This document shows, piece after piece, positions 903 through 54,425 of a DNA stretch of 64,000 bases. This stretch comes from a virus. Lineage: Duplodnaviria; Caudoviricetes. The notes below the pieces were generated by a model. It saw only the letters and a list, made by a program, of their open reading frames with translations. It was not told where the DNA came from and ran no database searches. Location: IMG/VR virus record IMGVR_UViG_2909979649_000004. The stretch is one strand, 5' to 3'. Numbering within the stretch: the stretch's first letter is position 1; each line of letters starts with the position of its first letter. A program made the translations under genes and the position numbers.

Positions 903-975
903 TGTTAACGATCGGTTAGTGGGTGGCAATTGCGCAGTGTAGTAATTGACATCCTAATTCAACTGCTGGTTATAC
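903..975 (-). other. attC site (73 bp) of integron cassette carrying 970-1353
   Basis: Minus strand GTATAAC (975-969, overlapping stop) ... GTTAACA (909-903) with internal dyad caattac/gcaattg; GTATAAC is complementary to the cassette-start GTTATAC at 1366. Confidence 0.75.
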
Positions 976-1353
976 GATGGCCTCAATGTCGGTATCGAAA
1001 TATTGATAGCCTGAGACTTTACCATTTACCACAATTGTATAGATTGGCATACACTTTTTAATATGCCAGTGTATTTTTTTTATTACTCCGTTCACCTTCT
1101 TGCGAGGAAGAAAAACAACCTCACCTACCTTAAAACCAGGAGCTGGAACTTCTTCAATATATGCTTCTTTGACTCTAAGTATATTCTCGCCATCCTTGAG
1201 TATTTTGTACCCTTCACTTTCACCTAAGTATTCGAAACAACAGCGCTGCCAGCCACTGGTATATTGTTTTGATACCAGCTCTCTATCTGAAGGATGAATA
1301 TTTGCAATATCATCTTCATTTAATATTAATAGTGAGCTATAGCAGTATTTCAT
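970..1353 (-). CDS. Integron cassette hypothetical protein
   Basis: 127-aa ORF lying exactly between two attC sites. Confidence 0.75.
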   Translation of the reverse strand: MKYCYSSLLILNEDDIANIHPSDRELVSKQYTSGWQRCCFEYLGESEGYKILKDGENILRVKEAYIEEVPAPGFKVGEVVFLPRKKVNGVIKKIHWHIKKCMPIYTIVVNGKVSGYQYFDTDIEAIV

Positions 1354-1359
1354 TTTTGC

Positions 1360-1418
1360 GTATAACGCCTAGCTCACTGAGCGCGCGTTAGCGCGTCCGG
1401 TGCAGCTACTTGTTAGCT
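1360..1418 (-). other. attC site (59-base element)
   Basis: Minus strand AGCTAAC-aagtagctgcaccggacgcgctaacgcgcgctcagtgagctaggc-GTTATAC; 59 bp, imperfect dyad, directly after stop codon. Confidence 0.9.
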
Positions 1419-1807
1419 TAGTTTTTATAATCAGGACCGACAAAGCTCCATTCCGTAACCGGTACTTGAACAATCATTACAGAGTCTTGCTTAAATTTCC
1501 GTGCGTATAGGGACGCTAATTCCTTAGCTTTTGTGGTGCCCTCAGAGTTAACTATGACAGTCACTACTTTAGAACGTTCGGGCTTGCCTTTATAGTAACC
1601 AACGGAATCCACAACATTAAAACCTTCAAAAACCTTTACTATTTCGTCTTGTTGAAAAGACTGCCACTCCTTTAAAGACACACCGCCTCCGCTAGGAAGA
1701 GATAAGCCAAAAAACATTCTCAACCTATACAACTCATCTGCGTTGGAAGTTGAAGTGCTGACCAAAATTATTATTGACACTAAGAAGTAATATAGTCTTT
1801 TTTTCAT
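1418..1807 (-). CDS. DUF3574-like exported protein (integron cassette)
   Basis: Signal peptide; FFGLS..GGVS..WQ.F..GF.VVD..G.Y.G..ERSKV pattern; bounded by GTTAGCT (1834) and attC. Confidence 0.7.
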   Translation of the reverse strand: MKKRLYYFLVSIIILVSTSTSNADELYRLRMFFGLSLPSGGGVSLKEWQSFQQDEIVKVFEGFNVVDSVGYYKGKPERSKVVTVIVNSEGTTKAKELASLYARKFKQDSVMIVQVPVTEWSFVGPDYKN

Positions 1808-1830
1808 GGTTCTTTCCCTAGTTTAGAAGC

Positions 1831-1860
1831 TAACTATATATGAATGTCACTATGATGTAA
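1831..1860 (-). other. attI-like cassette insertion site (short copy C)
   Basis: ttacatcatagtgacattcatatatagtta matches the last 30 nt of the 45990-46098 repeat at 24/30 and ends at the GTT of the first cassette. Confidence 0.65.
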
Positions 1861-1873
1861 CCCCCGTCATACT

Positions 1874-2809
1874 TCACTTAGTTAAACTAACACTCGTCGT
1901 ATACCCCGAAGCACTTACCAAGTGCTTTGTCTGCTTCACTACCCATCGACCATCTACGCCAGCTCTTACACCTTGAATAATCACAGGTCTTTCAGCTATT
2001 AATTCAGGGTTACCCACCACGGTTATACTTAAACTGGCTTCTGTATCATTTAAACCACTTAGCTTGGCTTTAGCACTAACTTGGGCTGCTTCCTTGGTTG
2101 GGTATATCATTTTAATAGTATAAACCGGCTCACCATTACCTACTTTGACATGGCTGGTTTTACCTTCTTCTGTCGAATGGTGCTTAGCTGTCACACTTTT
2201 GTAATATTGACGATCAGGTGCCTTAAGGTTCCACTTACTAACTTTGGTAATAGTGATAGGCGATAGTTGCCTACCGGTTGCTGTTTTGGTTTTCCCTCGC
2301 TCAACAAACACCAAATGTTCCATCATTGGCTTAACAATCGCCCCATGATCCAATGCAATACGACTTAAAAAATTAATATCTGATTCTTCTGTCTGGTCTA
2401 TATGATCAATGACAATAGGCGTAAATATTTCTGCAATTTTAGGTTTCAAGCCATTGTCATTGGCAACTGTGGTTACAATATCTACCAACTTTTTTTGATG
2501 CCATGAACGGGATTTAGGGCTACGGAGCTGATCTCGAAGGTTAGCGCCTTTTGCCTGTATGGTCATTTGATTTGGTGGACCAGAGAGTGATACCTCATCA
2601 ATAATAAAATCACCCATATGAATATTCTGGATAGCGACTGATAGCTTGGTGCCTTTGGCGGGTATGGGTAAATTACCTTCAGGGTCAGAAAGCTTAAGGG
2701 TTACACTATCTGACTTGATCCCTGCTTCATCGGTGAGTTCGAGGCTGATAAGGTGGTTTTGGATGATGACTGGGTAAGATGAGATAGTGATTTGGTAGTT
2801 AATTAACAT
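1874..2809 (-). CDS. Phage late control / baseplate hub protein (P2 gpD-like)
   Basis: LISLELTDEAG..SD, IDQTEESDINFLSR motifs; follows gpX and gpU. Confidence 0.9.
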   Translation of the reverse strand: MLINYQITISSYPVIIQNHLISLELTDEAGIKSDSVTLKLSDPEGNLPIPAKGTKLSVAIQNIHMGDFIIDEVSLSGPPNQMTIQAKGANLRDQLRSPKSRSWHQKKLVDIVTTVANDNGLKPKIAEIFTPIVIDHIDQTEESDINFLSRIALDHGAIVKPMMEHLVFVERGKTKTATGRQLSPITITKVSKWNLKAPDRQYYKSVTAKHHSTEEGKTSHVKVGNGEPVYTIKMIYPTKEAAQVSAKAKLSGLNDTEASLSITVVGNPELIAERPVIIQGVRAGVDGRWVVKQTKHLVSASGYTTSVSLTK

Positions 2810-2891: not shown

Positions 2892-3671
2892 ATGAAAAGT
2901 TGCTTTATTATTCTTATTTCTTTGCTCTCAACATACACTATTGCTCAACCTAAAGACGAAACAAAAGTAACTATTGACGCTAATAATATTACTTATCAAG
3001 GATATTTATCAGCAAAAGCCAATGAAAAAGTTTACAATCTTTACAATCAATCTAAAACCAAACCTACTTGGTTTTCTATTAAGAGTAAAGGTGGAGAAAT
3101 TGGTTTAGGAATGGACTTGGCTGAGTGGATTTATAAAAATAAATTAAATGTTAAAATAGTAGACTATTGCTTTTCATCTTGTGCAAACTACATCCTTCCT
3201 GCCGGAAGACAGTTGGTGTTAGAAAAAGCAGCTATCTTTGGTTTTCATGGTAGTGTGAATAGTAAAGATAATGATTTTGATAAAGATTTTTCTGGTTTAG
3301 ATGAATATATAAATACTTTACCAGAAAAAGATCGTATTCTAACTAAAGAGAAAGTATTAAAACAATTTCAGGCAGACCTTATAAGAGATCGTAAGCGAGA
3401 AATAAATCTATATAAAAAGCTTGGAGTTTCTCCCCAGCTACCTCTGTTAGGACAACAAGAAAAGTACCAGCTATCACTTAAGAATTATCTAGGTAAAGAT
3501 AACCTTGAAGAAAAGGACCAATATGAAGGTTGGTACTACTCCTTATCTGACCTAAAAAGTTTGGGAGTAACAAATATAACTGTTATAGACCCACCTTGGG
3601 CACCAGCTGAAAATATCAAAAAGTTTAAATTGCTTAGACTCTATATAAAGGAAGGTGAGTTAAGACCATAA
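2892..3671 (+). CDS. Exported moron protein, ClpP/crotonase-like fold
   Basis: Signal peptide; I.S.GG and CFSSCANYI..AG..FGFHG motifs; antisense in tail operon, low GC. Confidence 0.6.
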   Translation: MKSCFIILISLLSTYTIAQPKDETKVTIDANNITYQGYLSAKANEKVYNLYNQSKTKPTWFSIKSKGGEIGLGMDLAEWIYKNKLNVKIVDYCFSSCANYILPAGRQLVLEKAAIFGFHGSVNSKDNDFDKDFSGLDEYINTLPEKDRILTKEKVLKQFQADLIRDRKREINLYKKLGVSPQLPLLGQQEKYQLSLKNYLGKDNLEEKDQYEGWYYSLSDLKSLGVTNITVIDPPWAPAENIKKFKLLRLYIKEGELRP

Positions 3672-8420: not shown

Positions 8421-9737
8421 TTAAAATACTTCGAAGGTAATAGTGGCACTTTCAATATCTTCATATTCCAGTGGTAGCCCTTTTTTAACTTGTTCAGTCG
8501 TTAAACGCTTTATTCCCATTGAAAATAGTTCTTCATCACCATCAATCGTATCGTCCGGGCTAACTTTTTTCACATATTCACTTTGATGGTTTTGCATATA
8601 CAGCAAGTCATCAATGATATCACCGGTTAATGTACTAATACTGACTTCACCGTTACTGTTATTGCTGGTCAACCAAAATTCATCATCACTATTTAGTTCA
8701 ACACTCTTTTGGTCACCATGATTGTTTCCTCTCATGGTAAATAATGCAGTATGCGCTTTATCAACTGACTGGATTAAAATATTTCCTTTCTGCTGTTGAT
8801 TTCTAATCGTGACTAATAAACGAAAAGAACGGTCACGATAGCCTAACGGCAACCATAACGTACCTTTGCCGGAAATTTGTGGACGATATATCCGTTTAGA
8901 TGCAATGATGGCTGGGTAAAATTGGCTGCTTTCAATTTTCCCTAACAACACATCGTCATAGCTTGAATCAAAAGATACATGTTGTTCATCCAAACCATGA
9001 GTATTATACGTGCTATCCTCTAAGTCTCTTAAATTGAAGCCTGTAGAAGGTGACCATCGTAAGTGATAGGTTTTGTCTTGCTCATAGGAGAATGTACGTT
9101 CACCTTCTGAATAACTTGCCGTATTGAAGTTTTTCCACCCGCGCCAGCGTATAATTTGATTGGGCTTTATCGTTAATAATTGGCTACTCAGATTGACTTT
9201 AAGCCGGTTATCGTCATTCAGTATTTCTGCAGCAATTGGCATTTGTGAAAAGCTATTGGCTAACAAGTTTTCAACATATGAGCGAGAAGCCAATACAATT
9301 GCAGGATCAATTTTAAGTTCTACATTCGCTGTATTACTTAGCTCAAAAATAACCTTTATATATAGGCTACTACCACTACCTTGAGCCAAAGTGGGTTTAT
9401 ACGTTTTCGGGTATTTACCGATGGCAATTAAATTATCATCTGTATCATACAGTCCAAATTCAGTAATATAAAAGTTACCATCTTCTTCAGGGATGACCGT
9501 TTCAATCACCAGCCAATGATCGTTATCCGGGTCTTGGAAAATACTATTAATAGGCCCCTGCCATTTTTCCCTAACCAGTGCAGTATCTGTTTCTTTGGGG
9601 TTGGTTTCTTTACCCCCATCTTCACCACCATCACCCACTTTTAAGGTGGTTAGTTTAACTGTTTTACCCAATGCCTGGGCGTTAATAATCCTGGCCTGCC
9701 CAAGCTTAGTGAGCAAGCTAAAGTATTTTTGATTCAA
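8421..9737 (-). CDS. Tail fibre protein (P2 gpH-like N-terminus)
   Basis: LT.LG..VGDG..IPE.DGNFYI.EFGLYD..YKP..GSG..IDPAIVLASR.YV N-terminal domain. Confidence 0.88.
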   Translation of the reverse strand: MNQKYFSLLTKLGQARIINAQALGKTVKLTTLKVGDGGEDGGKETNPKETDTALVREKWQGPINSIFQDPDNDHWLVIETVIPEEDGNFYITEFGLYDTDDNLIAIGKYPKTYKPTLAQGSGSSLYIKVIFELSNTANVELKIDPAIVLASRSYVENLLANSFSQMPIAAEILNDDNRLKVNLSSQLLTIKPNQIIRWRGWKNFNTASYSEGERTFSYEQDKTYHLRWSPSTGFNLRDLEDSTYNTHGLDEQHVSFDSSYDDVLLGKIESSQFYPAIIASKRIYRPQISGKGTLWLPLGYRDRSFRLLVTIRNQQQKGNILIQSVDKAHTALFTMRGNNHGDQKSVELNSDDEFWLTSNNSNGEVSISTLTGDIIDDLLYMQNHQSEYVKKVSPDDTIDGDEELFSMGIKRLTTEQVKKGLPLEYEDIESATITFEVF

Positions 9738-25134: not shown

Positions 25135-25596
25135 TTAAAGGCCTAAATCTTCGCGTAGCTTTTTGTTCTCTTGTTTCAACTCTTTCACTGCTTCGATTAA
25201 AACACCAACTAATCCAGCATAGTTAACTTGTTTAAGTGTCACTTCAGCGCCATTCTTATCTGTGACTTTGACATTATGAACTAGCTCAGGAAATGCTTTT
25301 TCTACATCCTGAGCAATTACACCAATATCTTTTCCTTGGGGAAGGTGTTCGATATCAGTCTCTTCAGGACTTTTCCACTCAAATTTTACACCTTTGAGTT
25401 GGCTAACCTTATCTAGGGCTTGATCAATTTTAGCTTGATTCTTTTTCAACGTTGAATCACTAAAACGCATGAAATTAGGCTTTGATAAGCACTCACTATA
25501 AGCATTTCCTGATAAATGTTTACACATCTCATGTGAGCCTGCTTGAGATGCAGTAGCAAGTGAAGCAAAAAAAATGGTAGTAAATAGTTTTTTCAA
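25135..25596 (-). CDS. Secreted peptide precursor with C-terminal S74 (intramolecular chaperone/autocleavage) domain
   Basis: TTG start at 25596; 19-aa signal (..ASQA), 26-aa two-Cys segment, then SDSTLK..DIGVIAQDVE..PELV..VNY.GL..LIEAVKEL. Confidence 0.8.
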   Translation of the reverse strand: MKKLFTTIFFASLATASQAGSHEMCKHLSGNAYSECLSKPNFMRFSDSTLKKNQAKIDQALDKVSQLKGVKFEWKSPEETDIEHLPQGKDIGVIAQDVEKAFPELVHNVKVTDKNGAEVTLKQVNYAGLVGVLIEAVKELKQENKKLREDLGL

Positions 25597-25660
25597 AGTA
25601 GTTCGCCCGTACTTTATTTGTATCAATTATTCTAACTTATAAAATAGCTAATTAGATCAC

Positions 25661-26053
25661 TTATAATCCAAATTGATCTCTCAAGACTTGATTCTCCTTC
25701 TTAAGCTCCTTGACAGCCTCAATTAAAACTCCAACAAGCCCAGCATAGTTAACCTGTTTGAAAGTTTTTTCTGTACCACTTTCATCTGTAACTTTGGAAT
25801 TATGAACCAGCTCAGGAAATACTTTTTCTACATCCTGGGCAATTACACCAATGTCCTTTTGGCTATTTTTTTTCCACTCAAAATTTACACCATTTAGTTG
25901 TGATACTTTATCTAGTGAGTTTTCGACAGGAGTAATATTTTGTTTAAGGTTGCGATCACTCCATACTCCCCGACCACATTCCCAACCTTGACAATATGCA
26001 TGAGAAAAAGTTGAAACAGAAGTTAGCACAATAGTAGCAATTATTTTTTTCAT
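25661..26053 (-). CDS. Secreted peptide precursor with C-terminal S74 domain (paralogue)
   Basis: 19-aa signal (..SHA), YCQGWECGRGVW, then SDRNLKQNI..GVIAQDVEKVFPELV..VNYAGL. Confidence 0.85.
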   Translation of the reverse strand: MKKIIATIVLTSVSTFSHAYCQGWECGRGVWSDRNLKQNITPVENSLDKVSQLNGVNFEWKKNSQKDIGVIAQDVEKVFPELVHNSKVTDESGTEKTFKQVNYAGLVGVLIEAVKELKKENQVLRDQFGL

Positions 26054-39794: not shown

Positions 39795-40100
39795 ATGTTA
39801 GCACTCTCACGAAAATACGGGCAGGCCATTTATATTGGTAATCATATCAGAATTTCATTAGGTGGGTTTAATCGGGAATCGGCCCGAGTAGGACTAGCAA
39901 TCAATGAAAAACTAGAAATTAAGGAGGTGCCTTACGAACGTTATCAAAAGCTAGGTGACGATATTACCTTCTTTATTCGACATAAAGGTGGTCAAGTGTG
40001 TTTTTATTTTGATGCGCCGAGAGATGTCATCATATTACGCAGTGAGCTGGAAGCAAGAAATAAGAAAGTTAAACCCGAAAAATCATTAAATGTTGCTTAA
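39795..40100 (+). CDS. CsrA-like protein with internal duplication
   Basis: MLALSRKYGQAIYIG..; second unit LGDDITF..GGQV..DAPRDV.I.RSEL. Confidence 0.75.
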   Translation: MLALSRKYGQAIYIGNHIRISLGGFNRESARVGLAINEKLEIKEVPYERYQKLGDDITFFIRHKGGQVCFYFDAPRDVIILRSELEARNKKVKPEKSLNVA

Positions 40101-40110
40101 GGAGAATGAA

Positions 40111-40305
40111 ATGCAACTTAAGTGGGTTAAGCTAAATAGGTATTTAGAACTATCTGGTGATACTCGGGATGCATTCGCTAATAAACAAAAGAAAGGTGTT
40201 TTTTTACGTGATCGTGAGTATCGAACCTGTAGTGATGGGCGAGTTTGGGTAAACCTTGAGGCAGTAGAAAAGTGGGCTCAAAAAAGTGAACCGAGGAGGC
40301 ACTAG
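40111..40305 (+). CDS. xis: Excisionase
   Basis: KWVKL..Y..G..DGRVWVNLEAVEKW; overlaps int start. Confidence 0.85.
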   Translation: MQLKWVKLNRYLELSGDTRDAFANKQKKGVFLRDREYRTCSDGRVWVNLEAVEKWAQKSEPRRH

Positions 40306-41486
40306 TGAGCAGTAAGTTGCCTGTAGGTGTCAGTATTCGGCAAAATAACCGAACAGAGTCTATTCAAGTTGCCTTTTCTTATCGTGGTGTTCAGTGTCGT
40401 GAGACGCTTAGGCTTAAGCCAAATAAGGCCAATATTAAATATGCTGAATCGTTGAGATCAGAAATCGTTAGCAAAATTAACAGAGGCTTATTTAAATACA
40501 GTGAATATTTTCCTGAATCACCTAGATGTAAATTATTTGGTGAGGAGACTCGTGAAAATATCACTGTAGCTGAATTGCTTAATGAGTATACCGCTGATTT
40601 ATCTCGTACGGTTGAGCCCTCAACTGAGCTTCGTTACCGTCGCTCGATAGAAGGGCAACTACTGCCGGAGTTTGGTGATATATTAGCTACTGAGCTAACG
40701 CCTAAGCGTATTCGTCAGTGGATTAAGTCAAAGGAGTGTAAGCGTAAGACAATTGCCAACCATCTTATACCCTTGGTTAAAGTACTTCGGCTGGCTGTTG
40801 TAGATGGAATTATTGCTAAGTCACCTATGGATTCTATCTCGCTTGATGATGTAGTTCATAAGGAGGCTAGGAGAAGTGACTATAAAATTGATCCATTTAC
40901 ACCGACTGAAATTGAAATACTGTTAAAGGCCATGGAAGGGCAGGTACACAATGCATATAAATTTGCCTTTTTTACGGGTGTTCGTACCAGTGAGCTAATT
41001 GGCTTGATGTGGAATAAGGTGGATTTACCCAGAGGTAAAGTGCTGATTGATCAAGCTAAGGTAGAAAGGCAGATGAAGGGTACTAAAACCGGTGAGAAAG
41101 GGGAGAGGGAGATAGCTTTATTTCCGCCAGCATTGCAGGCTATTCAGGATCAACTGAAGTATACAGGGGAGGGCGAATACGTCTTCCATAACCCAAGGAC
41201 TAATCAACCTTGGGATGATGATCAGCAAATAAGAAAGCGGGCGTGGATGCCTGCAATTAAAAGTACTAGGTTGCGTTACCGTAATCCTTATCAGACCAGA
41301 CACACCTTTGTTTGCTTGATGATTGCCAGGAATGAAAACCTATTCTGGATTGCCAGCCAAATGGGGCATCAGGGTATTGAGATGATCAATAGACATTATG
41401 GCAAGTTTATTGAGGAAGCTGGGGCGCAAAGTTCTTATGAGCCTAATCATGATTGGGGGGAGTTTGTGGTGAGTTCAGATGTGTGA
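40305..41486 (+). CDS. int: Tyrosine integrase (arm-binding N-terminal domain)
   Basis: F.YRGVQCRETL, DPFT, TGVRTSELIGL.W, YQTRHT, QMGH, HY. Confidence 0.95.
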   Translation: MSSKLPVGVSIRQNNRTESIQVAFSYRGVQCRETLRLKPNKANIKYAESLRSEIVSKINRGLFKYSEYFPESPRCKLFGEETRENITVAELLNEYTADLSRTVEPSTELRYRRSIEGQLLPEFGDILATELTPKRIRQWIKSKECKRKTIANHLIPLVKVLRLAVVDGIIAKSPMDSISLDDVVHKEARRSDYKIDPFTPTEIEILLKAMEGQVHNAYKFAFFTGVRTSELIGLMWNKVDLPRGKVLIDQAKVERQMKGTKTGEKGEREIALFPPALQAIQDQLKYTGEGEYVFHNPRTNQPWDDDQQIRKRAWMPAIKSTRLRYRNPYQTRHTFVCLMIARNENLFWIASQMGHQGIEMINRHYGKFIEEAGAQSSYEPNHDWGEFVVSSDV

Positions 41487-44083: not shown

Positions 44084-44807
44084 TTAGTGTTCCCTCACAG
44101 TTCTTGTTTTCACTATGTACTAATTAGCGTATACATTTAATTATTGTGTCACATGTATCGCTTATAATTAAACTACTGGATGCAGATTTTTGTTTCTGCT
44201 GAAAAGCATCGTATCTTTAATGTATAAAGGGCTGAAGAGCAAGAACTCTCAACTATATATATTTAACAACTTGCAGCTTTTCTAACCTTAGTATAATCGA
44301 GCTATTTCACTAACACCTACCTTTACGTATATCAGATTATTTTCTTATTAATGTCACATCACTTCCATTCACCCGAAGGCTGTGACCGTTATATAGGAGG
44401 GTACTGGAATCTAGGAGGTTGGAAAAAGCACTCATCCTCCACACCTGCGAGTTTTATGAAAATTTATTTGTGGTAATAATTAACAGCTAAGCCTTGTTGT
44501 TTAATCGTTTTAGGAATTATTTATTATTTTCACAAAGTGAAAAATTATCTCAGTTTAAGTAAAAAATACATTTTCAGTGAAAATTATTTATTTTAAGAAA
44601 ACAATAATTGTGTCGTATTCAATACAAGTAGCATTCTTCTGTTTTTAGGCTGTAGTGTTTAACCCTAATTTCTTGTCTTACTTTTCCAAGCAGCAGGCTT
44701 GTCATGATCACCTCCACACAAATATCTATTGAGATGATATGATGTTGTATGTAAGTGCCGTTTAAATAATGGCCAATTCTATGTAAATCAGTTAGTTCAG
44801 TGCATCA

Positions 44808-44916
44808 TATCAACATTATTCTAGTAATAAGTTTGTGACTTGGTTAAAATATATTTGGTTGTTATACGTCAATGCGACGTAGCATTTTGCGTCAGAGAGG
44901 CGTTCATTAAAAGTTA
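44808..44916 (+). other. attI-like site (copy A)
   Basis: 109-bp repeat, ~96/109 identical to 45990-46098; homology ends exactly at GTTA (44913). Confidence 0.75.
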
Positions 44917-45419
44917 TGTTTCAGAATAATATGAATACAGAGTACTCAATTACAGAAGATGATTATGTGAGAGCAATGAAGCTGTTCTCAAAAATTACAA
45001 CAAAGGCTGCTGTAATATACCTAATAATAATAGGTGTAGCAGTTATAGCTGCAATTTTTGGTTCGCCAGTTATTAAAGGTAGTGCAATAGGTGGATTAGT
45101 AGGTGGTGGTAGTGTTGCGATAGTGATGAGATTTCTTATAAATCCAATTCTTTCTAGAAGGGATTATAGAAAATATAAAGCAATTCAAGAGCCGATAAAG
45201 ATTCATTTATTAAATGAAGGGGTTCAATTTTCCGCATCAGATGGGGAAGGTATTGTCAGATGGGAACAGGTGCACAAGTGGCGTCAAAATGACGATTACT
45301 TACTAATATATCCAATGCCAGGGCTATACCACATTATTCCTAAATCAATTGCTGAAAGTGGTTTTGATTTAAGTGGGCTGATTACAACATTACACGAAAA
45401 GGTAGGCAATGAAGCATAA
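44916..45419 (+). CDS. YcxB-like membrane protein (integron cassette)
   Basis: Two TM segments, then W..V.KW..YLLIY..IIPK; starts at GTTATGT and ends in GCATAAC. Confidence 0.78.
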   Translation: MFQNNMNTEYSITEDDYVRAMKLFSKITTKAAVIYLIIIGVAVIAAIFGSPVIKGSAIGGLVGGGSVAIVMRFLINPILSRRDYRKYKAIQEPIKIHLLNEGVQFSASDGEGIVRWEQVHKWRQNDDYLLIYPMPGLYHIIPKSIAESGFDLSGLITTLHEKVGNEA

Positions 45420-45487
45420 CAAGGCAAATCTACATGGACGCAATACTCGCTGGTGCTTGCATTGCTCCGGTTATTTGCGGTTTTGAC
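45414..45487 (+). other. Degenerate attC site
   Basis: GCATAAC-aaggcaaat..ggacgcaat..attgctcc..atttgc dyad; right core decayed. Confidence 0.65.
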
Positions 45488-45989
45488 CATATTTAATAAT
45501 TTTCAAGTTTTGCAGGTAGTCCACAAGTTCATGAATATATGTTGTGGGATTGTCAGTAGAGAGTCTGGATGCATCTTTTAAAAATTGAGCCGCATTTTTT
45601 TGCATCTTCAATGTCAGGGAGCAACGTAGAAAATATTTTTTTTGTGCCCCTGATTAAAAACGCTGATAGTTTAAAAATTATGATAACTTTTAGTTTTTTA
45701 TTTATTTGGTGTTTATAAATGAATTATTGCAGGTTTTGATAAGTATGCTGTCATGCTGGAGACGTAGGTGTATTCAAAATAGGGCTATCTTTATTGAGAT
45801 GTGGTAACCTGATGCCTGGCTATGTTCATTAGCAATGCTTGTCTTGATATGAGTTAGCGAATGGAGTGTGTTCGCTGGCAATTCTTACCTCAGAGCAATT
45901 CAATCGCATTCTTTAATTGTTCCATGAACTTGTCAACCCTTGTTCTCTATCAAGTAATTTGTGTGGTTGGTTGCTGGTAGAGTGATTCC

Positions 45990-46098
45990 TATCAGCATTA
46001 TTCTAGTAATAAGTTTGTTGCTTGGCTAAAATGTATTCGATTGTTATACGTCAATGCGACATAGTACTTTGCGTCAGAGTGACGTTCATTAATAGTTA
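45990..46098 (+). other. attI-like site (copy B)
   Basis: Repeat of 44808-44916 ending at GTTA (46095). Confidence 0.75.
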
Positions 46099-46107
46099 AG
46101 TCAATCT

Positions 46108-46500
46108 ATGAATAATTCTGATTGGGTTAAATTTTTCACAGCCTGTAATGAAGTATTGGGCCAAGGAAGTTGTTCGTCGTTGCATAGTGAGAATTGGTGT
46201 GCATGGACCACTTTTGGAAAGCTCCAAGAAGACTGCCTTTACTGGCGGTCTGGGCTACCAAATAATGATGAGTTAACTGATACGTATGTAAAGGATGGGG
46301 GCACATGGGGGCAGCCGTTCTTGTATAGCGAAATAGCCCATATTATTGTACCTTCACGATTTTACTGGGAGCGCCCTCCAGGCAAAGGATGGGAGTGTGG
46401 ACATAGAGAGCAAAATATCGCTGGGCTTTCACAAGCGTTGCAGCGTCTTGAAGTGCAACACCGAATTACAGATATTATATTAGAAATTAAACTCTACTAG
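46108..46500 (+). CDS. Integron cassette hypothetical protein (Trp-rich)
   Basis: Begins after GTTAAGT; followed by complementary ACTTAAC. Confidence 0.75.
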   Translation: MNNSDWVKFFTACNEVLGQGSCSSLHSENWCAWTTFGKLQEDCLYWRSGLPNNDELTDTYVKDGGTWGQPFLYSEIAHIIVPSRFYWERPPGKGWECGHREQNIAGLSQALQRLEVQHRITDIILEIKLY

Positions 46501-46511
46501 TTGGCTCATGT

Positions 46512-46549
46512 ACTTAACAAGTTGCTATCCTTTTATGGCGGCGTTATGA
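46512..46549 (+). other. Internally deleted attC (38 bp)
   Basis: ACTTAAC-aagttgcta..tggcggc-GTTATGA. Confidence 0.65.
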
Positions 46550-46553
46550 GTAA

Positions 46554-46883
46554 ATGATGAATGAAATAGAGGTAATTCGGCGACTCTTCGATTTCAACTG
46601 GCCTTCAGACGATGAGCTTGTAGAGTTTGCAGAAAAGAAAACTGGTTACGGAGGCGACGATGGTTACTATGGAGTTTTGTATCCAGGTGATCTAGACGAC
46701 TACGATAAGGAAGTTGATGGTTACCACATCCCAGATGGAATGATCGAGGTAGCATATTGGAATGGAGACGATGATGTTATTCAAGTCCCAGAAGAATTGT
46801 ACCTGCAAGAATTGTTAATCTACTTAAAAACAAATGAAAAACATGAGCTTTCAAGTCGTATTGGTAAGCTCTTAACAGGGTAA
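46554..46883 (+). CDS. Acidic cassette protein, possibly toxin-immunity (CdiI-like)
   Basis: 109 aa, very acidic; between attC sites; family call tentative. Confidence 0.6.
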   Translation: MMNEIEVIRRLFDFNWPSDDELVEFAEKKTGYGGDDGYYGVLYPGDLDDYDKEVDGYHIPDGMIEVAYWNGDDDVIQVPEELYLQELLIYLKTNEKHELSSRIGKLLTG

Positions 46884-46930
46884 GGTATTGGGCTACGCTG
46901 ACACTGGCCCAATGCTTAATGCTATTAAGT
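46870..46930 (+). other. attC site, right core mutated
   Basis: TCTTAAC..aaggtattgggc..gcccaatgctt..ATTAAGT. Confidence 0.65.
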
Positions 46931-47164
46931 CAGATGCTGCAATCAAAGGCTAACCTACAAGGTCGTGATATGAAAGTTAATCAGGCTCAACCAAAATCTA
47001 ACAGCCGTCCACAACGTAGACCAAGGTATTAATACCTAGTCATGCAAATCGCTGGAAGTAGAAGGCTATAATCTTTTTGCTTCTGGCAAGTCCAGTTTTT
47101 TATATCTCATCACCATATATAACTCATCTTTTAATCAGACTAGTTATTAAGCAATAGCATTTCT

Positions 47165-47390
47165 CGTGTGAATTTCGTGTGAATTTGGTACCCACTTTTA
47201 GACAAAACCTCACCCTGTAAGGTTTTCAGGTAATGTTCTAAGTGGTTGATTTTAAAGGGTTTTAAGGAAATTCAAGGTGAGTGGAAGTGGTGGAGGCGGC
47301 GGGAATTGAATGTTCGTATAAGGCATTTAACTAATTGATTTTAAAGATAAAATTTCCAAAAATGGACTGCGTGCGAATTGAGTGCGAAAA
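47165..47390. other. att junction: arm repeats, IHF boxes and core
   Basis: CGTGTGAATTT x2 (47165-47186); IHF consensus WATCAANNNNTTR on minus at 47239-47251 and 47328-47340; GTGCGAA x2 (47371-47390). Confidence 0.8.
47288..47310 (-). repeat. att core = 3' fragment of tmRNA (ssrA)-like gene
   Basis: Minus TTCAATTCCCGCCGCCTCCACCA: T-loop, acceptor strand and CCA; 5' T-stem strand absent, so not a full gene. Confidence 0.8.
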
Positions 47391-48312: not shown

Positions 48313-49467
48313 CTACCACTCATAATTAGGCTTGTATTTATTATCGTCTCCAGCCTCTTCAATAAACATTCCATAATGCCTGTTAATCATCTCAATGCCT
48401 TGGTGGCCCATTTGGCTTGCTATCCAGAATAGGTTTTCATTTCTTGCTATAAGAAGGCATGCGTAGGTATGCCTAGTTTGGTACGGGTTCCGATAGCGTA
48501 GGCCACTTTTTTTTATCGCAGGAATCCAAGCACATTTTCTAATTTGCTGATCATTTTTCCAGGCTTGGTTTGTTCGTGGATTATGAAACACAAAATCGTT
48601 GTTGTTCGTATAGTTAAACTGAGATTCTAGGGCTGATATAGCAGAAGGGAAGAGATGTATTAATCTTTCACCCTTGGTACCTGTTTTGGTGCCTTTGAGT
48701 AGACCTTCTACTTTAGCCTGGTCAATCAAAACAGACTTGCCTTTTAAGTTAACTTTATCCCAAGTAAGTCCTATGAGTTCACTAGTTCTAACCCCTGTAT
48801 AAAAAGCAAACTGAAAAGCATTTTTTACCTGTCCCTCCATGCTTTCCAGTAGCTGTTGTATTTCTGCAGGTTTAAAAGGGTCGACTTTAAAATTACTGAC
48901 TCTAGCATCTTTATGAATGAAATCATCAAGAGATATTGCATCCATTGGTGACCTGGGAATAATAGCGTCTACAACAGCCAGCCGAAGTGCCTTAACTAAG
49001 GGGATAAGGTGGTTGGCAATGGTTTTACGCTTACAATTTTTCGATTTAACCCATTCACGAATATGTTTCGGTGTAAGCTCTGTAACGAGAATTTCTCCAA
49101 ACTCTGGAAGTAGCTGACCTTCAATAGACCGTTTATAGCGCAGAGCTGTTGAAGGCTCTACAGTCCTGTGAAGGTCATTGATATATTCTTTTAGTAACTC
49201 TGCAACTGTAGTATTTACTCGAGTACATTCACCAAATACTTTACACCGTGGGGATTCTGGAAAGTAATCACTGTATTTAAATATGTGACGTTCTATTTTC
49301 CCAATAATTTCTGCTCTAAGCGCTTCAGCATAACGTAAATTTGCTCTAGTTGGCTTTAGCTTTAGGGTTTCTCTACATTCAACCCCTCTATACATGAAAG
49401 CAATCAGAATAGACTCTGATTGCTTATGTTTTCTTATCCTTATTCCTCTAGGAAGCGATGAGGTCAT
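48313..49467 (-). CDS. int: Tyrosine integrase, close paralogue of 40305-41486
   Basis: Same motifs and long identical blocks (e.g. RNENLFWIASQMGHQGIEMINRHYG). Confidence 0.95.
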   Translation of the reverse strand: MTSSLPRGIRIRKHKQSESILIAFMYRGVECRETLKLKPTRANLRYAEALRAEIIGKIERHIFKYSDYFPESPRCKVFGECTRVNTTVAELLKEYINDLHRTVEPSTALRYKRSIEGQLLPEFGEILVTELTPKHIREWVKSKNCKRKTIANHLIPLVKALRLAVVDAIIPRSPMDAISLDDFIHKDARVSNFKVDPFKPAEIQQLLESMEGQVKNAFQFAFYTGVRTSELIGLTWDKVNLKGKSVLIDQAKVEGLLKGTKTGTKGERLIHLFPSAISALESQFNYTNNNDFVFHNPRTNQAWKNDQQIRKCAWIPAIKKSGLRYRNPYQTRHTYACLLIARNENLFWIASQMGHQGIEMINRHYGMFIEEAGDDNKYKPNYEW

Positions 49468-53510: not shown

Positions 53511-54425
53511 ATGGATGATGTTTATGATAACTGCAATGGCTATGTACGACTCAATAACCAGTTATTGGAAGCTATTTGTCAGCTGGATATTTCTGGCCGC
53601 CAGTTTCGTATTTTGATGGCGGTGATTAGAAAAACAATTGGCTATAACATCGAGGTTGACTGGATTTCTGCCAGCCAATTAGCTGATTTAATGGCTTATG
53701 ATGGTGCCACCACCCACCTACATGCCGATTTACGAATACTCAAAGAGCGCAAAATCGTAATCACCAGAGGTCGTAAAATTGGCATCAATAAAAGTTTGGC
53801 TAACTGGTGTTTTAGCAAAATCGAAACTAACCAAAAACCGTCACTAAACAAACCGAAATCGGTCACTCATAAAGAAACCAAAAACGGTCAGGTTAGTGAC
53901 CGAAATCCGTCAGTAAACAAACCGAATTCCGTCACTCCCAAACAAACCGAAAACGGTCAGTGTAGTGACCGAAATCGGTCAGAAAAAGTGACTGAAAACG
54001 GTCACCACAAAAGACAAAAAGACACTAAACCAAAAAACACTATTACCCCCTTTAATCCCCCCTTGGAGGAAACCAACCCACAACCGAGTAAAAAATCCAA
54101 ACGTCGTACACCAGCCAAACGAACCACCACTGCCCCTGAACATTTTCCGATGACACCGGAATTAATTCGGTGGGCCAGTGAGAATTTTATTCGGGTCGAT
54201 TTGATTATCGAAACTGAAAAATTTCTGGATCACCACCGGGCCAAAGGTTCCACGTTCACTTGCTGGGCGTCAGCCTGGCGAAACTGGATGCGTAATGCCC
54301 AACGCTTTGCGGCTGAAAAAGCCATGCCACCCGTTCCAACGACCGGCCCTGTTAAACCCAATGGAATCAAACCTGGGGGGATGGATTGGGATGATACCAG
54401 CTGGCGCCATGACTTAGGTCTGTGA
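53511..54425 (+). CDS. Replication initiator (lambda O-like)
   Basis: NGYVRLNNQLLEA..RQFR..RKTIGY..DWI..Q; internal iterons; F.DH..W..AWRNW. Confidence 0.9.
   Translation: MDDVYDNCNGYVRLNNQLLEAICQLDISGRQFRILMAVIRKTIGYNIEVDWISASQLADLMAYDGATTHLHADLRILKERKIVITRGRKIGINKSLANWCFSKIETNQKPSLNKPKSVTHKETKNGQVSDRNPSVNKPNSVTPKQTENGQCSDRNRSEKVTENGHHKRQKDTKPKNTITPFNPPLEETNPQPSKKSKRRTPAKRTTTAPEHFPMTPELIRWASENFIRVDLIIETEKFLDHHRAKGSTFTCWASAWRNWMRNAQRFAAEKAMPPVPTTGPVKPNGIKPGGMDWDDTSWRHDLGL
53829..54005 (+). repeat. Iterons (ori) within O
   Basis: 8 copies of RACCGAAAWCSGTCAS-like 16-mer. Confidence 0.85.

Follow-up and report, generated by a model that had tools for sequence, protein, structure and literature searches.

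Integrons are usually described as systems with one integrase, one attI site and one array of gene cassettes. A circular cassette carries a complete attC site and is inserted by the integrase, IntI, at the double-stranded attI site, with strand exchange between the G and the TT of the site. Cassettes that end in attI were reportedly first noticed by Partridge et al. More recently, delta-attI and attI-ORF-attI cassettes were described in class 1 and class 2 mobile integrons and found to be active with IntI1; in that work attI1-aadB-attI1 excised at ~100%, by which the authors explain its rarity (Gonzales Machuca et al. 2026, PMC12901181). Complete integrons, In0 elements and attC clusters have been reported in phage genomes (Qi et al. 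2023, PMC9892861).

Here, we analysed a 64,000-nucleotide stretch of DNA, hereafter the window, filed as a virus of the Caudoviricetes (IMG/VR record IMGVR_UViG_2909979649_000004) and corresponding to C1:1279604-1343603 of a 6.69-Mb genome (4 contigs, 40% G+C). It carries a repeat that heads cassettes, and we conclude that this repeat is very probably the attI platform of a Zooshikellaceae integron, the integrase having been lost and the docking site multiplied. A sequence-only reading of positions 44808-46930 had proposed duplicated orphan attI-like platforms loaded with different cassettes; it is partly supported, being right in its core and corrected below in its details.

A repeat with a common terminal core

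A repeat search of the 64 kb returned only 4 families of at least 40 nt, one of which lies at 44799-44919 and 45981-46101 (121 nt, 86% identity). In a pairwise alignment of these copies, A and B, the match ends directly after AGTTA, with GTTA at 44913-44916 and 46095-46098. The repeat reported earlier as 109 bp at ~88% is thus real, with a shared end at AGTTA, and the shorter third copy placed at 1860 is present as a core on the minus strand, behind a phage tail gene.

44799-44919, plus strand: probable attI platform, copy A; core site 44892-44916, predicted crossover between G and TT at 44913/44914
45981-46101, plus strand: probable attI platform, copy B; core site 46074-46098, zero mismatches
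1831-1873, minus strand: short third platform, directly after the gpD stop; core 25-mer 1831-1855, 3 mismatches
1874-2809, minus strand: gene for a gpD-type tail protein, the final tail gene in prophage 1 (PF05954; phrog_52, E 5e-106)

Copy B is nearer to a further copy, C (92% identity), than to copy A (86%). The terminal core common to all family copies spans ~28 bp, GCGTCAGAGTGACGTTCATTAATAGTTA. In longer copies the 15-bp palindrome ACGTCA-N3-TGACGT occurs twice, in one case three times, spaced at 23 bp, and is accompanied by a block with a conserved TAAAAT; in the window the palindromes lie at 44861-44905 and 46043-46087. The full platform has a second palindrome module, inverted, ~105 bp upstream. 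An Rfam scan of 43-49 kb at E values up to 1 gave zero matches.

The platform adjoins the integrase gene in a relative

Zooshikella sp. RANM57, of the same family, encodes a full integron integrase (TIGR02249, 481 bits; cut-off 265), the sole intact one of the family. A platform homologue lies 262 bp upstream of this gene and divergent from it. The order outward from intI is a LexA box, an inverted palindrome module, ~110 bp, the platform element and classical attC cassettes, with 4 canonical attCs in the same orientation within 4.3 kb after the platform. Copy A and its counterpart in the sister genome G001 align collinearly with this attI region, including the 5' end of intI, and a remnant of the gene is retained beside copy A.

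L077:1489-2448: RANM57 integron integrase gene (TIGR02249)
44613-44705, minus strand: intI stump of 31 codons ending in TGA, 93 bp upstream of copy A

By tblastn, the stump is 77% identical to residues 1-31 of the RANM57 IntI. Copy C, 35 kb rightwards, is accompanied by a second stump and by a LexA box that is intact; with the RANM57 IntI as query, no further IntI fragment was found in the genome. Because of the collinearity with RANM57 and the stumps, we take the repeat to be the attI region of the family integron and copy A to be the native attI of a dead integron. Copy A, standing beside an intI stump, is therefore not an orphan as previously described. The platform thus adjoins intI on its cassette side in RANM57 and at copy A, which does not apply to copy B or the gpD copy.

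The window's genome holds no complete integron, an intact integrase gene being absent. The earlier finding of no intact intI in the window extends to the whole 6.69 Mb, where the best TIGR02249 match is Xer-like and reaches 75.6 bits against the cut-off of 265. Four of the five other family genomes hold only intI fragments or nothing, G001 having two stump loci. Among 5.8 billion proteins searched, the nearest relative of the RANM57 IntI is environmental and 59-67% identical, and no close relative was found in the own genus. The expectation that the repeat would match the attI next to the host intI consequently holds for an integrase gene of the same family and for stumps in the genus, but not for the host itself, which has no intact intI.

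The stumps also bear on the possibility that the copies are remnants of complete integrons, one per copy, that lost their integrases, so that attI was not multiplied alone. Copies A and C each retain a stump, C with its LexA box, and the two loci are just 73% identical over 725 bp, which makes them old paralogues; G001 likewise has its two loci. However, no IntI fragment was detected by tblastn beside copies other than A and C, the prophage platforms begin ~50 bp past the gpD stop, where intI would belong, copy B abuts the 5' untranslated region (5'UTR) of a gene for an RRM RNA-binding protein, and plasmid and array copies retain the last ~28-35 bp only. We regard separate relics as unlikely.

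Cassette insertion at the platforms

After an insertion, the bases following the G of the site are the TTRRRY of the cassette and are therefore complementary to its R'' core. The cassettes following the three platforms of the window are as follows.

44917-45486, plus strand: cassette 1 after copy A; YcxB-like ORF, decayed attC
44916 or 44931 to 45419, plus strand: YcxB-like open reading frame (ORF; Pfam PF14317)
45414-45486, plus strand: cassette-1 attC; R'' ATAACAA and hairpin kept, 3' spacer shortened
46099-46549, plus strand: cassette B1; 130-aa ORF 46108-46500, attC 46512-46549
46546-46930, plus strand: cassette B2; 109-aa ORF 46554-46883, attC-like hairpin 46870-46930
1360-1830, minus strand: first cassette after the gpD platform; DUF3574-like ORF 1418-1807, attC 1360-1418
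904-1359, minus strand: second cassette on the gpD side; 127-aa ORF 970-1353, weak attC ~904-975

Of 9 independent platforms, 8 end in a GTTAnnn that is perfectly reverse-complementary to the R'' of the first attC downstream. They comprise copy B of the window (GTTAAGT; R'' of B1, ACTTAAC), the gpD copy of the window (GTTAGCT; R'' AGCTAAC), copies D, E, H and K, and two RANM57 sites, the attI and a phage-linked copy. The complementarity is inexact at copy C (5/7) and, judged by eye, at copy A (6/7). We read the 7-mer complementarity as the scar of IntI insertion between G and TT, the position expected of attI with a GTTRRRY-type core, and the proposal that other copies likewise end at cassette GTTs is borne out by these scars. 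The conservation profile changes at the same place. Across 68 distinct copies from six genomes, it amounts to 1-2 bits per position up to position -1 and 0.1-0.5 bits from position 0 onwards; positions -28 to -26, beyond the search pattern, are conserved as well.

So sharp a shared end would also suit the terminus of a transposon or of a transposable phage, or the site of another recombinase (Xer, phage integrase), as would the palindromes, which resemble binding sites at 23-bp spacing, and the location at prophage ends. Yet neither a second inverted end nor a target duplication was seen at the block, its end is not TG/CA, a same-strand gene always follows, the junction bases fit integron attC cores, and the phage integrases use att repeats of their own, the ssrA fragments described below. 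The probability of such an origin is negligible.

For the attC sites, a finder based on a regular expression and folding energy gave 164 matches against 130 in the control. As it was too unspecific, we adopted a covariance model built from 11 attCs of the family, with invariant TAAC/GTTA, unpaired 3-nt spacers and compensatory changes in 8 of the 12 stem pairs. The attC at 1360-1418 has the textbook fold and scores 66 bits, being itself a training member. The attC at 46512-46549 has collapsed to 38 nt with no fold left (14 bits, E 0.44). Those at 45414-45486 and 46870-46930 are missed by the model, and each still forms one hairpin (-10.8 kcal/mol, z -1.9, and -8.9 kcal/mol, z -2.5, the latter with ATT instead of GTT as R'). 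Within 44.8-47 kb, the family model thus finds one marginal attC, and two others are recognisable only as decayed hairpins; the window tally is one textbook, two decayed and one collapsed. The second gpD-side cassette, whose attC the model also misses, has an R'' (GTATAAC) complementary to its start core GTTATAC. The earlier remark that several attCs are decayed is therefore confirmed, and because of this decay the arrays look frozen.

Could the repeat itself be a family-specific attC, comparable to the Vibrio VCR, and the locus an ordinary cluster of attC sites lacking integron integrases (CALIN)? In favour are its recurrence at the boundaries of cassettes, its GTTA end and, in relatives, its arrays with a spacing of 440-2000 bp. 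But the 121-bp repeat folds no better than shuffled sequences (z -1.4 / -0.9), alifold of 17 array copies shows no R''/R' end pairing, and the family attC model gives no match to it; folding, alifold and covariance model together led us to reject the repeat as attC. Moreover, genuine covarying attCs of quite different form share arrays with it, and the intI-proximal copy is preceded by no cassette. This explanation is very improbable.

Pfam matches among the window cassettes are confined to YcxB and DUF3574, and PADLOC matched none of the five cassettes. The DUF3574-like ORF (1418-1807, minus strand) has a lipoprotein-like N-terminus and a marginal match to S-adenosylmethionine lyase (30 bits; cut-off 28). 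In Z. ganghwensis, the YcxB-like gene has a homologue that directly follows a platform as its first cassette and carries a canonical attC. The YcxB-like and 130-aa proteins have homologues (33-43% identity) that are neighbours in two Zooshikella species, divergent around a platform, which may point to an old or functional pairing.

L110:1300-3483 (Z. ganghwensis contig 153), also L107: pair of YcxB-like and 130-aa homologues

The surroundings of copy B record how this part of the window was assembled.

45487-45873: stretch of ~390 bp without a long ORF
45874-45997, plus strand: piece of the upstream region/5'UTR of a gene for an RRM RNA-binding protein, at the left junction with copy B
46931-47032, plus strand: 3' remnant of the RRM gene, last ~100 nt

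The fragment at 45874-45997 is 87-92% identical to the sequence upstream of intact RRM genes, and the left junction of copy B falls within a ~25-nt stretch common to platform and RRM 5'UTR. Judging from these junctions, copy B and its two cassettes have replaced the 5' half of the RRM gene.

Copies on chromosome, prophages and plasmids

The repeat is multiplied as proposed, the genome total being ~19 copies of the 28-bp core rather than three. Five copies follow the gpD gene of related prophages, and one further gpD is followed by the left part of the platform only. Six copies are on plasmids C2 and C3, and the remainder are chromosomal. A same-strand ORF begins within 55 nt after 12 of 13 copies in the genome; the functions are varied and include GNATs, a K+ channel, MCRA, a TIR/PDC-S35 protein and uncharacterised ones. 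PADLOC, applied to five cassettes from other copies, gave a single match, to the TIR/PDC-S35 cassette at copy K. The second gene at copy K (L045:6464-7153; G000:C1 ~2681730) encodes a protein with a CAP12/Pycsar-type TIR domain and matches the PADLOC candidate system PDC-S35; canonical attCs flank this region (L045:6373-6441, 9185-9264).

A 25-mer of the core, searched with up to 2 mismatches, was found in all 5 other family genomes and in 0 of 35 genomes of the other families of the order, and the reversed 25-mer as control had 0 matches in the same genomes. Exact matches among 185,579 species genomes were exclusively in Zooshikella; metagenome contigs held no exact match. Three matches in IMG/VR are all provirus calls from genomes of the genus and, being identical or nearly so to copies already counted, are not independent.

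In Zooshikella, the truncated site ends a conserved ~100-nt element between cassettes, and long arrays of this kind are nearly without canonical attCs.

RANM57 contig 15 (L083:7400-13400) and L084, L085, L086, L087: attI-element arrays

The array element starts with YTAATCRG right past the stop codon, has a promoter-like motif, TGGATA-17-TACAAT, and ends with the 28-bp core. By sequence, cassettes ended by a complete or truncated attI, as in the delta-attI type, are found in the window's genome (copy B lies 560 bp after the first cassette ORF, and copies on plasmid C2 are 1.2 kb apart). The arrays of RANM57 contig 15 and of other relatives fit this architecture too, one of their cassettes being common to two species with neighbours that differ on both sides. 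This distribution leads us to a wider reading, held tentatively and with the balance somewhat against it: the Zooshikellaceae attI would be a portable multi-copy docking site on phages (after gpD) and plasmids, many cassettes would use its last ~28 bp, set in a ~100-nt element with an outward promoter, as their 3' recombination site in place of an attC, and one integrase would serve the network.

Palindromes and the promoter-like block

Genome-wide, ACGTCA-N3-TGACG(T) is nearly confined to the platforms (19 raw matches against ~2 expected). No palindrome site marking an autoregulated regulator gene was found in the genome off the platforms, bar one likely chance match within a gene. The conserved TAAAAT stands 62 nt before GTTA with a poor -35 element, and a consensus scan places no plus-strand site there.

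These features raise the possibility that the main function of the block is regulatory, as a promoter with operator palindromes and a 5' leader common to an accessory-gene regulon, its GTTA end being incidental. Besides the confinement of the palindrome, the same-strand gene just downstream of the copies, the good TGGATA-17-TACAAT promoter seen by eye upstream of the palindrome in array-type elements, and the conservation of the core despite the absence of IntI would be accounted for. Left unexplained are the exact complementarity of GTTAnnn to R'' at 8/9 sites, the position beside intI and the stop of conservation at one nucleotide in 68 copies. As a substitute for attI, a regulatory module is quite improbable; a regulatory role can exist beside the attI role, not in its place.

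Prophages and the tmRNA-gene hotspot

PHROGs and Pfam matches define two prophages in the window: prophage 1, a myovirus with its integrase at 40305-41486, and prophage 2, P2/HP1-like with its integrase at 48313-49467. A stretch of ~3 kb with ribA, SDR and LOG-like genes separates the integrase of prophage 1 from copies A and B, which lie beyond it at the right-hand end of an island bounded by fragments of ssrA, the gene for transfer-messenger RNA (tmRNA).

47233-47310: ssrA 3'-end fragment (att repeat) closing the island; the tmRNA gene is 80 kb rightwards

The placement of platforms "at both ends of a prophage" therefore holds for the gpD end of prophage 1, where the short copy is found, and not for copies A and B. 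Four elements in tandem, with ssrA fragments as their boundaries, make up the tmRNA-gene hotspot; copies A and B close the second of them and copy C the third. The tmRNA gene itself (C1:1406954-1407324) heads the ~152 kb (C1:1254312-1407324) of these elements, each closed by an ssrA fragment, and inverted pairs of RRM RNA-binding-protein genes flank the fragments.

Several further features of the prophages were noted. Between gpD and the next tail gene, a moron-like 259-aa ORF (2892-3671, plus strand) lies on the opposite strand; its start resembles a signal peptide, and it has no match in Pfam. In prophage 1, the early region (25166-25915) contains two direct repeat pairs (168 nt, 79%; 46 nt, 83%) ~500-526 bp apart, and a CsrA-family gene (39795-40100, plus strand; PF02599) is located just upstream of its integrase. 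At the start of a 329-aa ORF of prophage 2, a tandem 69-nt repeat of ACCGAAA/CGGTCA-type units (53830-53967) may represent the iterons of a replication origin.

Model and its weak points

In the model that we favour, an IntI formerly present or acting in trans would have inserted circular cassettes between the G and the TT of the terminal GTTA, and a promoter of the platform would drive the first cassette. Copy A would be the native attI and copy B a second full copy; short versions stand after gpD of prophage 1 and four sister prophages, and truncated versions, the last ~28 bp, head genes on plasmids. The arrays would now be frozen without IntI while their attCs decay. A direct pair such as A and B flanking a cassette would be unstable under an active integrase, which fits the absence of the integrase. 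Sampling of the host cassette pool at present, as the sequence-only reading supposed, is impossible in a host that lacks IntI, and for the genus no close relative of IntI has been recorded. By contrast, its distinction from an ordinary CALIN was sound, the attI being kept and multiplied.

Several observations weigh against this model. There is no integrase in the genome, recombination is impossible here now, and activity is read from scars. The attI interpretation does not account for the arrival of copy B at the RRM gene. The core of copy A has 3 mismatches that break the proximal palindrome, and the palindromes are unlike the direct-repeat IntI sites of attI1. A consensus promoter scan of the platform gives 8 sites against 9.9 expected from shuffled sequence, so that the probable promoter proposed earlier keeps its conserved TAAAAT block but gains nothing from the scan. 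The core is equally well kept in the integrase-less genus and in RANM57, and, being kept where the integrase is gone, may have a second role as operator, leader or other regulatory element. Finally, in a plasmid cassette common to G000 and G002, homology starts ~24-40 nt before GTTA and not at GTTA, which suggests that some of the shuffling may be homologous rather than site-specific.

If the model holds, a docking site has been split from its integrase and spread over chromosome, prophages and plasmids, with scars that point to cassette delivery to satellite sites. Should the RANM57 integrase act on the platforms, this would be a natural system for attI-only access of phages and plasmids to a cassette pool. 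Under the portable-site reading, phages and plasmids would load cargo from one pool through one resident or transient integrase. It would also bear on the origin of attI-ended cassettes outside clinical integrons and on the fate of arrays after integrase loss, in which attCs decay and the platform persists. A sequence-defined chromosomal attI with unusual palindromes is now available for study.

Comparison with known systems

The attI and cassette promoter (Pc) of chromosomal and class 1 integrons, such as attI1 and the Vibrio attIA, are the closest counterparts. As there, the RANM57 site is divergent from intI behind a LexA box, the crossover separates G from TT in a GTTRRRY-like core at the end of the site and coincides with the start of the first cassette, and GTTA motifs occur further upstream. 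Unlike these systems, there are ~19 copies per genome instead of one, most without an adjacent intI. In place of the direct repeats DR1 and DR2 of attI1, the platform has two or three 15-bp palindromes.

In delta-attI cassettes, attI or its last few to ~240 nt takes the place of the attC expected downstream of the ORF. The delta-attI/attI-ORF-attI architecture matches the A...B arrangement, the plasmid copies and the Zooshikella arrays, and the ~100% excision of attI1-aadB-attI1 fits an A...B pair that survives only where the integrase is gone. Among clinical mobile integrons, delta-attI cassettes are rare and retain 8-18 nt of the site (one 244 nt), whereas in the environmental genomes here the truncated site measures ~28 nt, belongs to a conserved ~100-nt element that has a promoter-like motif directed outward, and prevails throughout entire arrays. 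The window also differs from attI-ORF-attI in that the cassette before copy B keeps a decayed attC and that ~390 bp and the RRM fragment intervene.

Like the phages of Qi et al., the temperate phages here contain integron parts and attC cassettes within their genomes; unlike them, a phage lineage keeps the attI docking site alone, in a constant position behind gpD, and has cassettes inserted there. A CALIN shares with the locus the absence of an integrase and the presence of attC cassettes, but here attI heads each cluster, and each cluster has one or two recognisable attCs. Phage-borne integron parts and attI-ended cassettes are thus already known. What is new is the number and spread of the attI copies, a phage lineage with attI alone at a fixed place, the palindromic architecture and the arrays that consist mostly of attI-ended cassettes.

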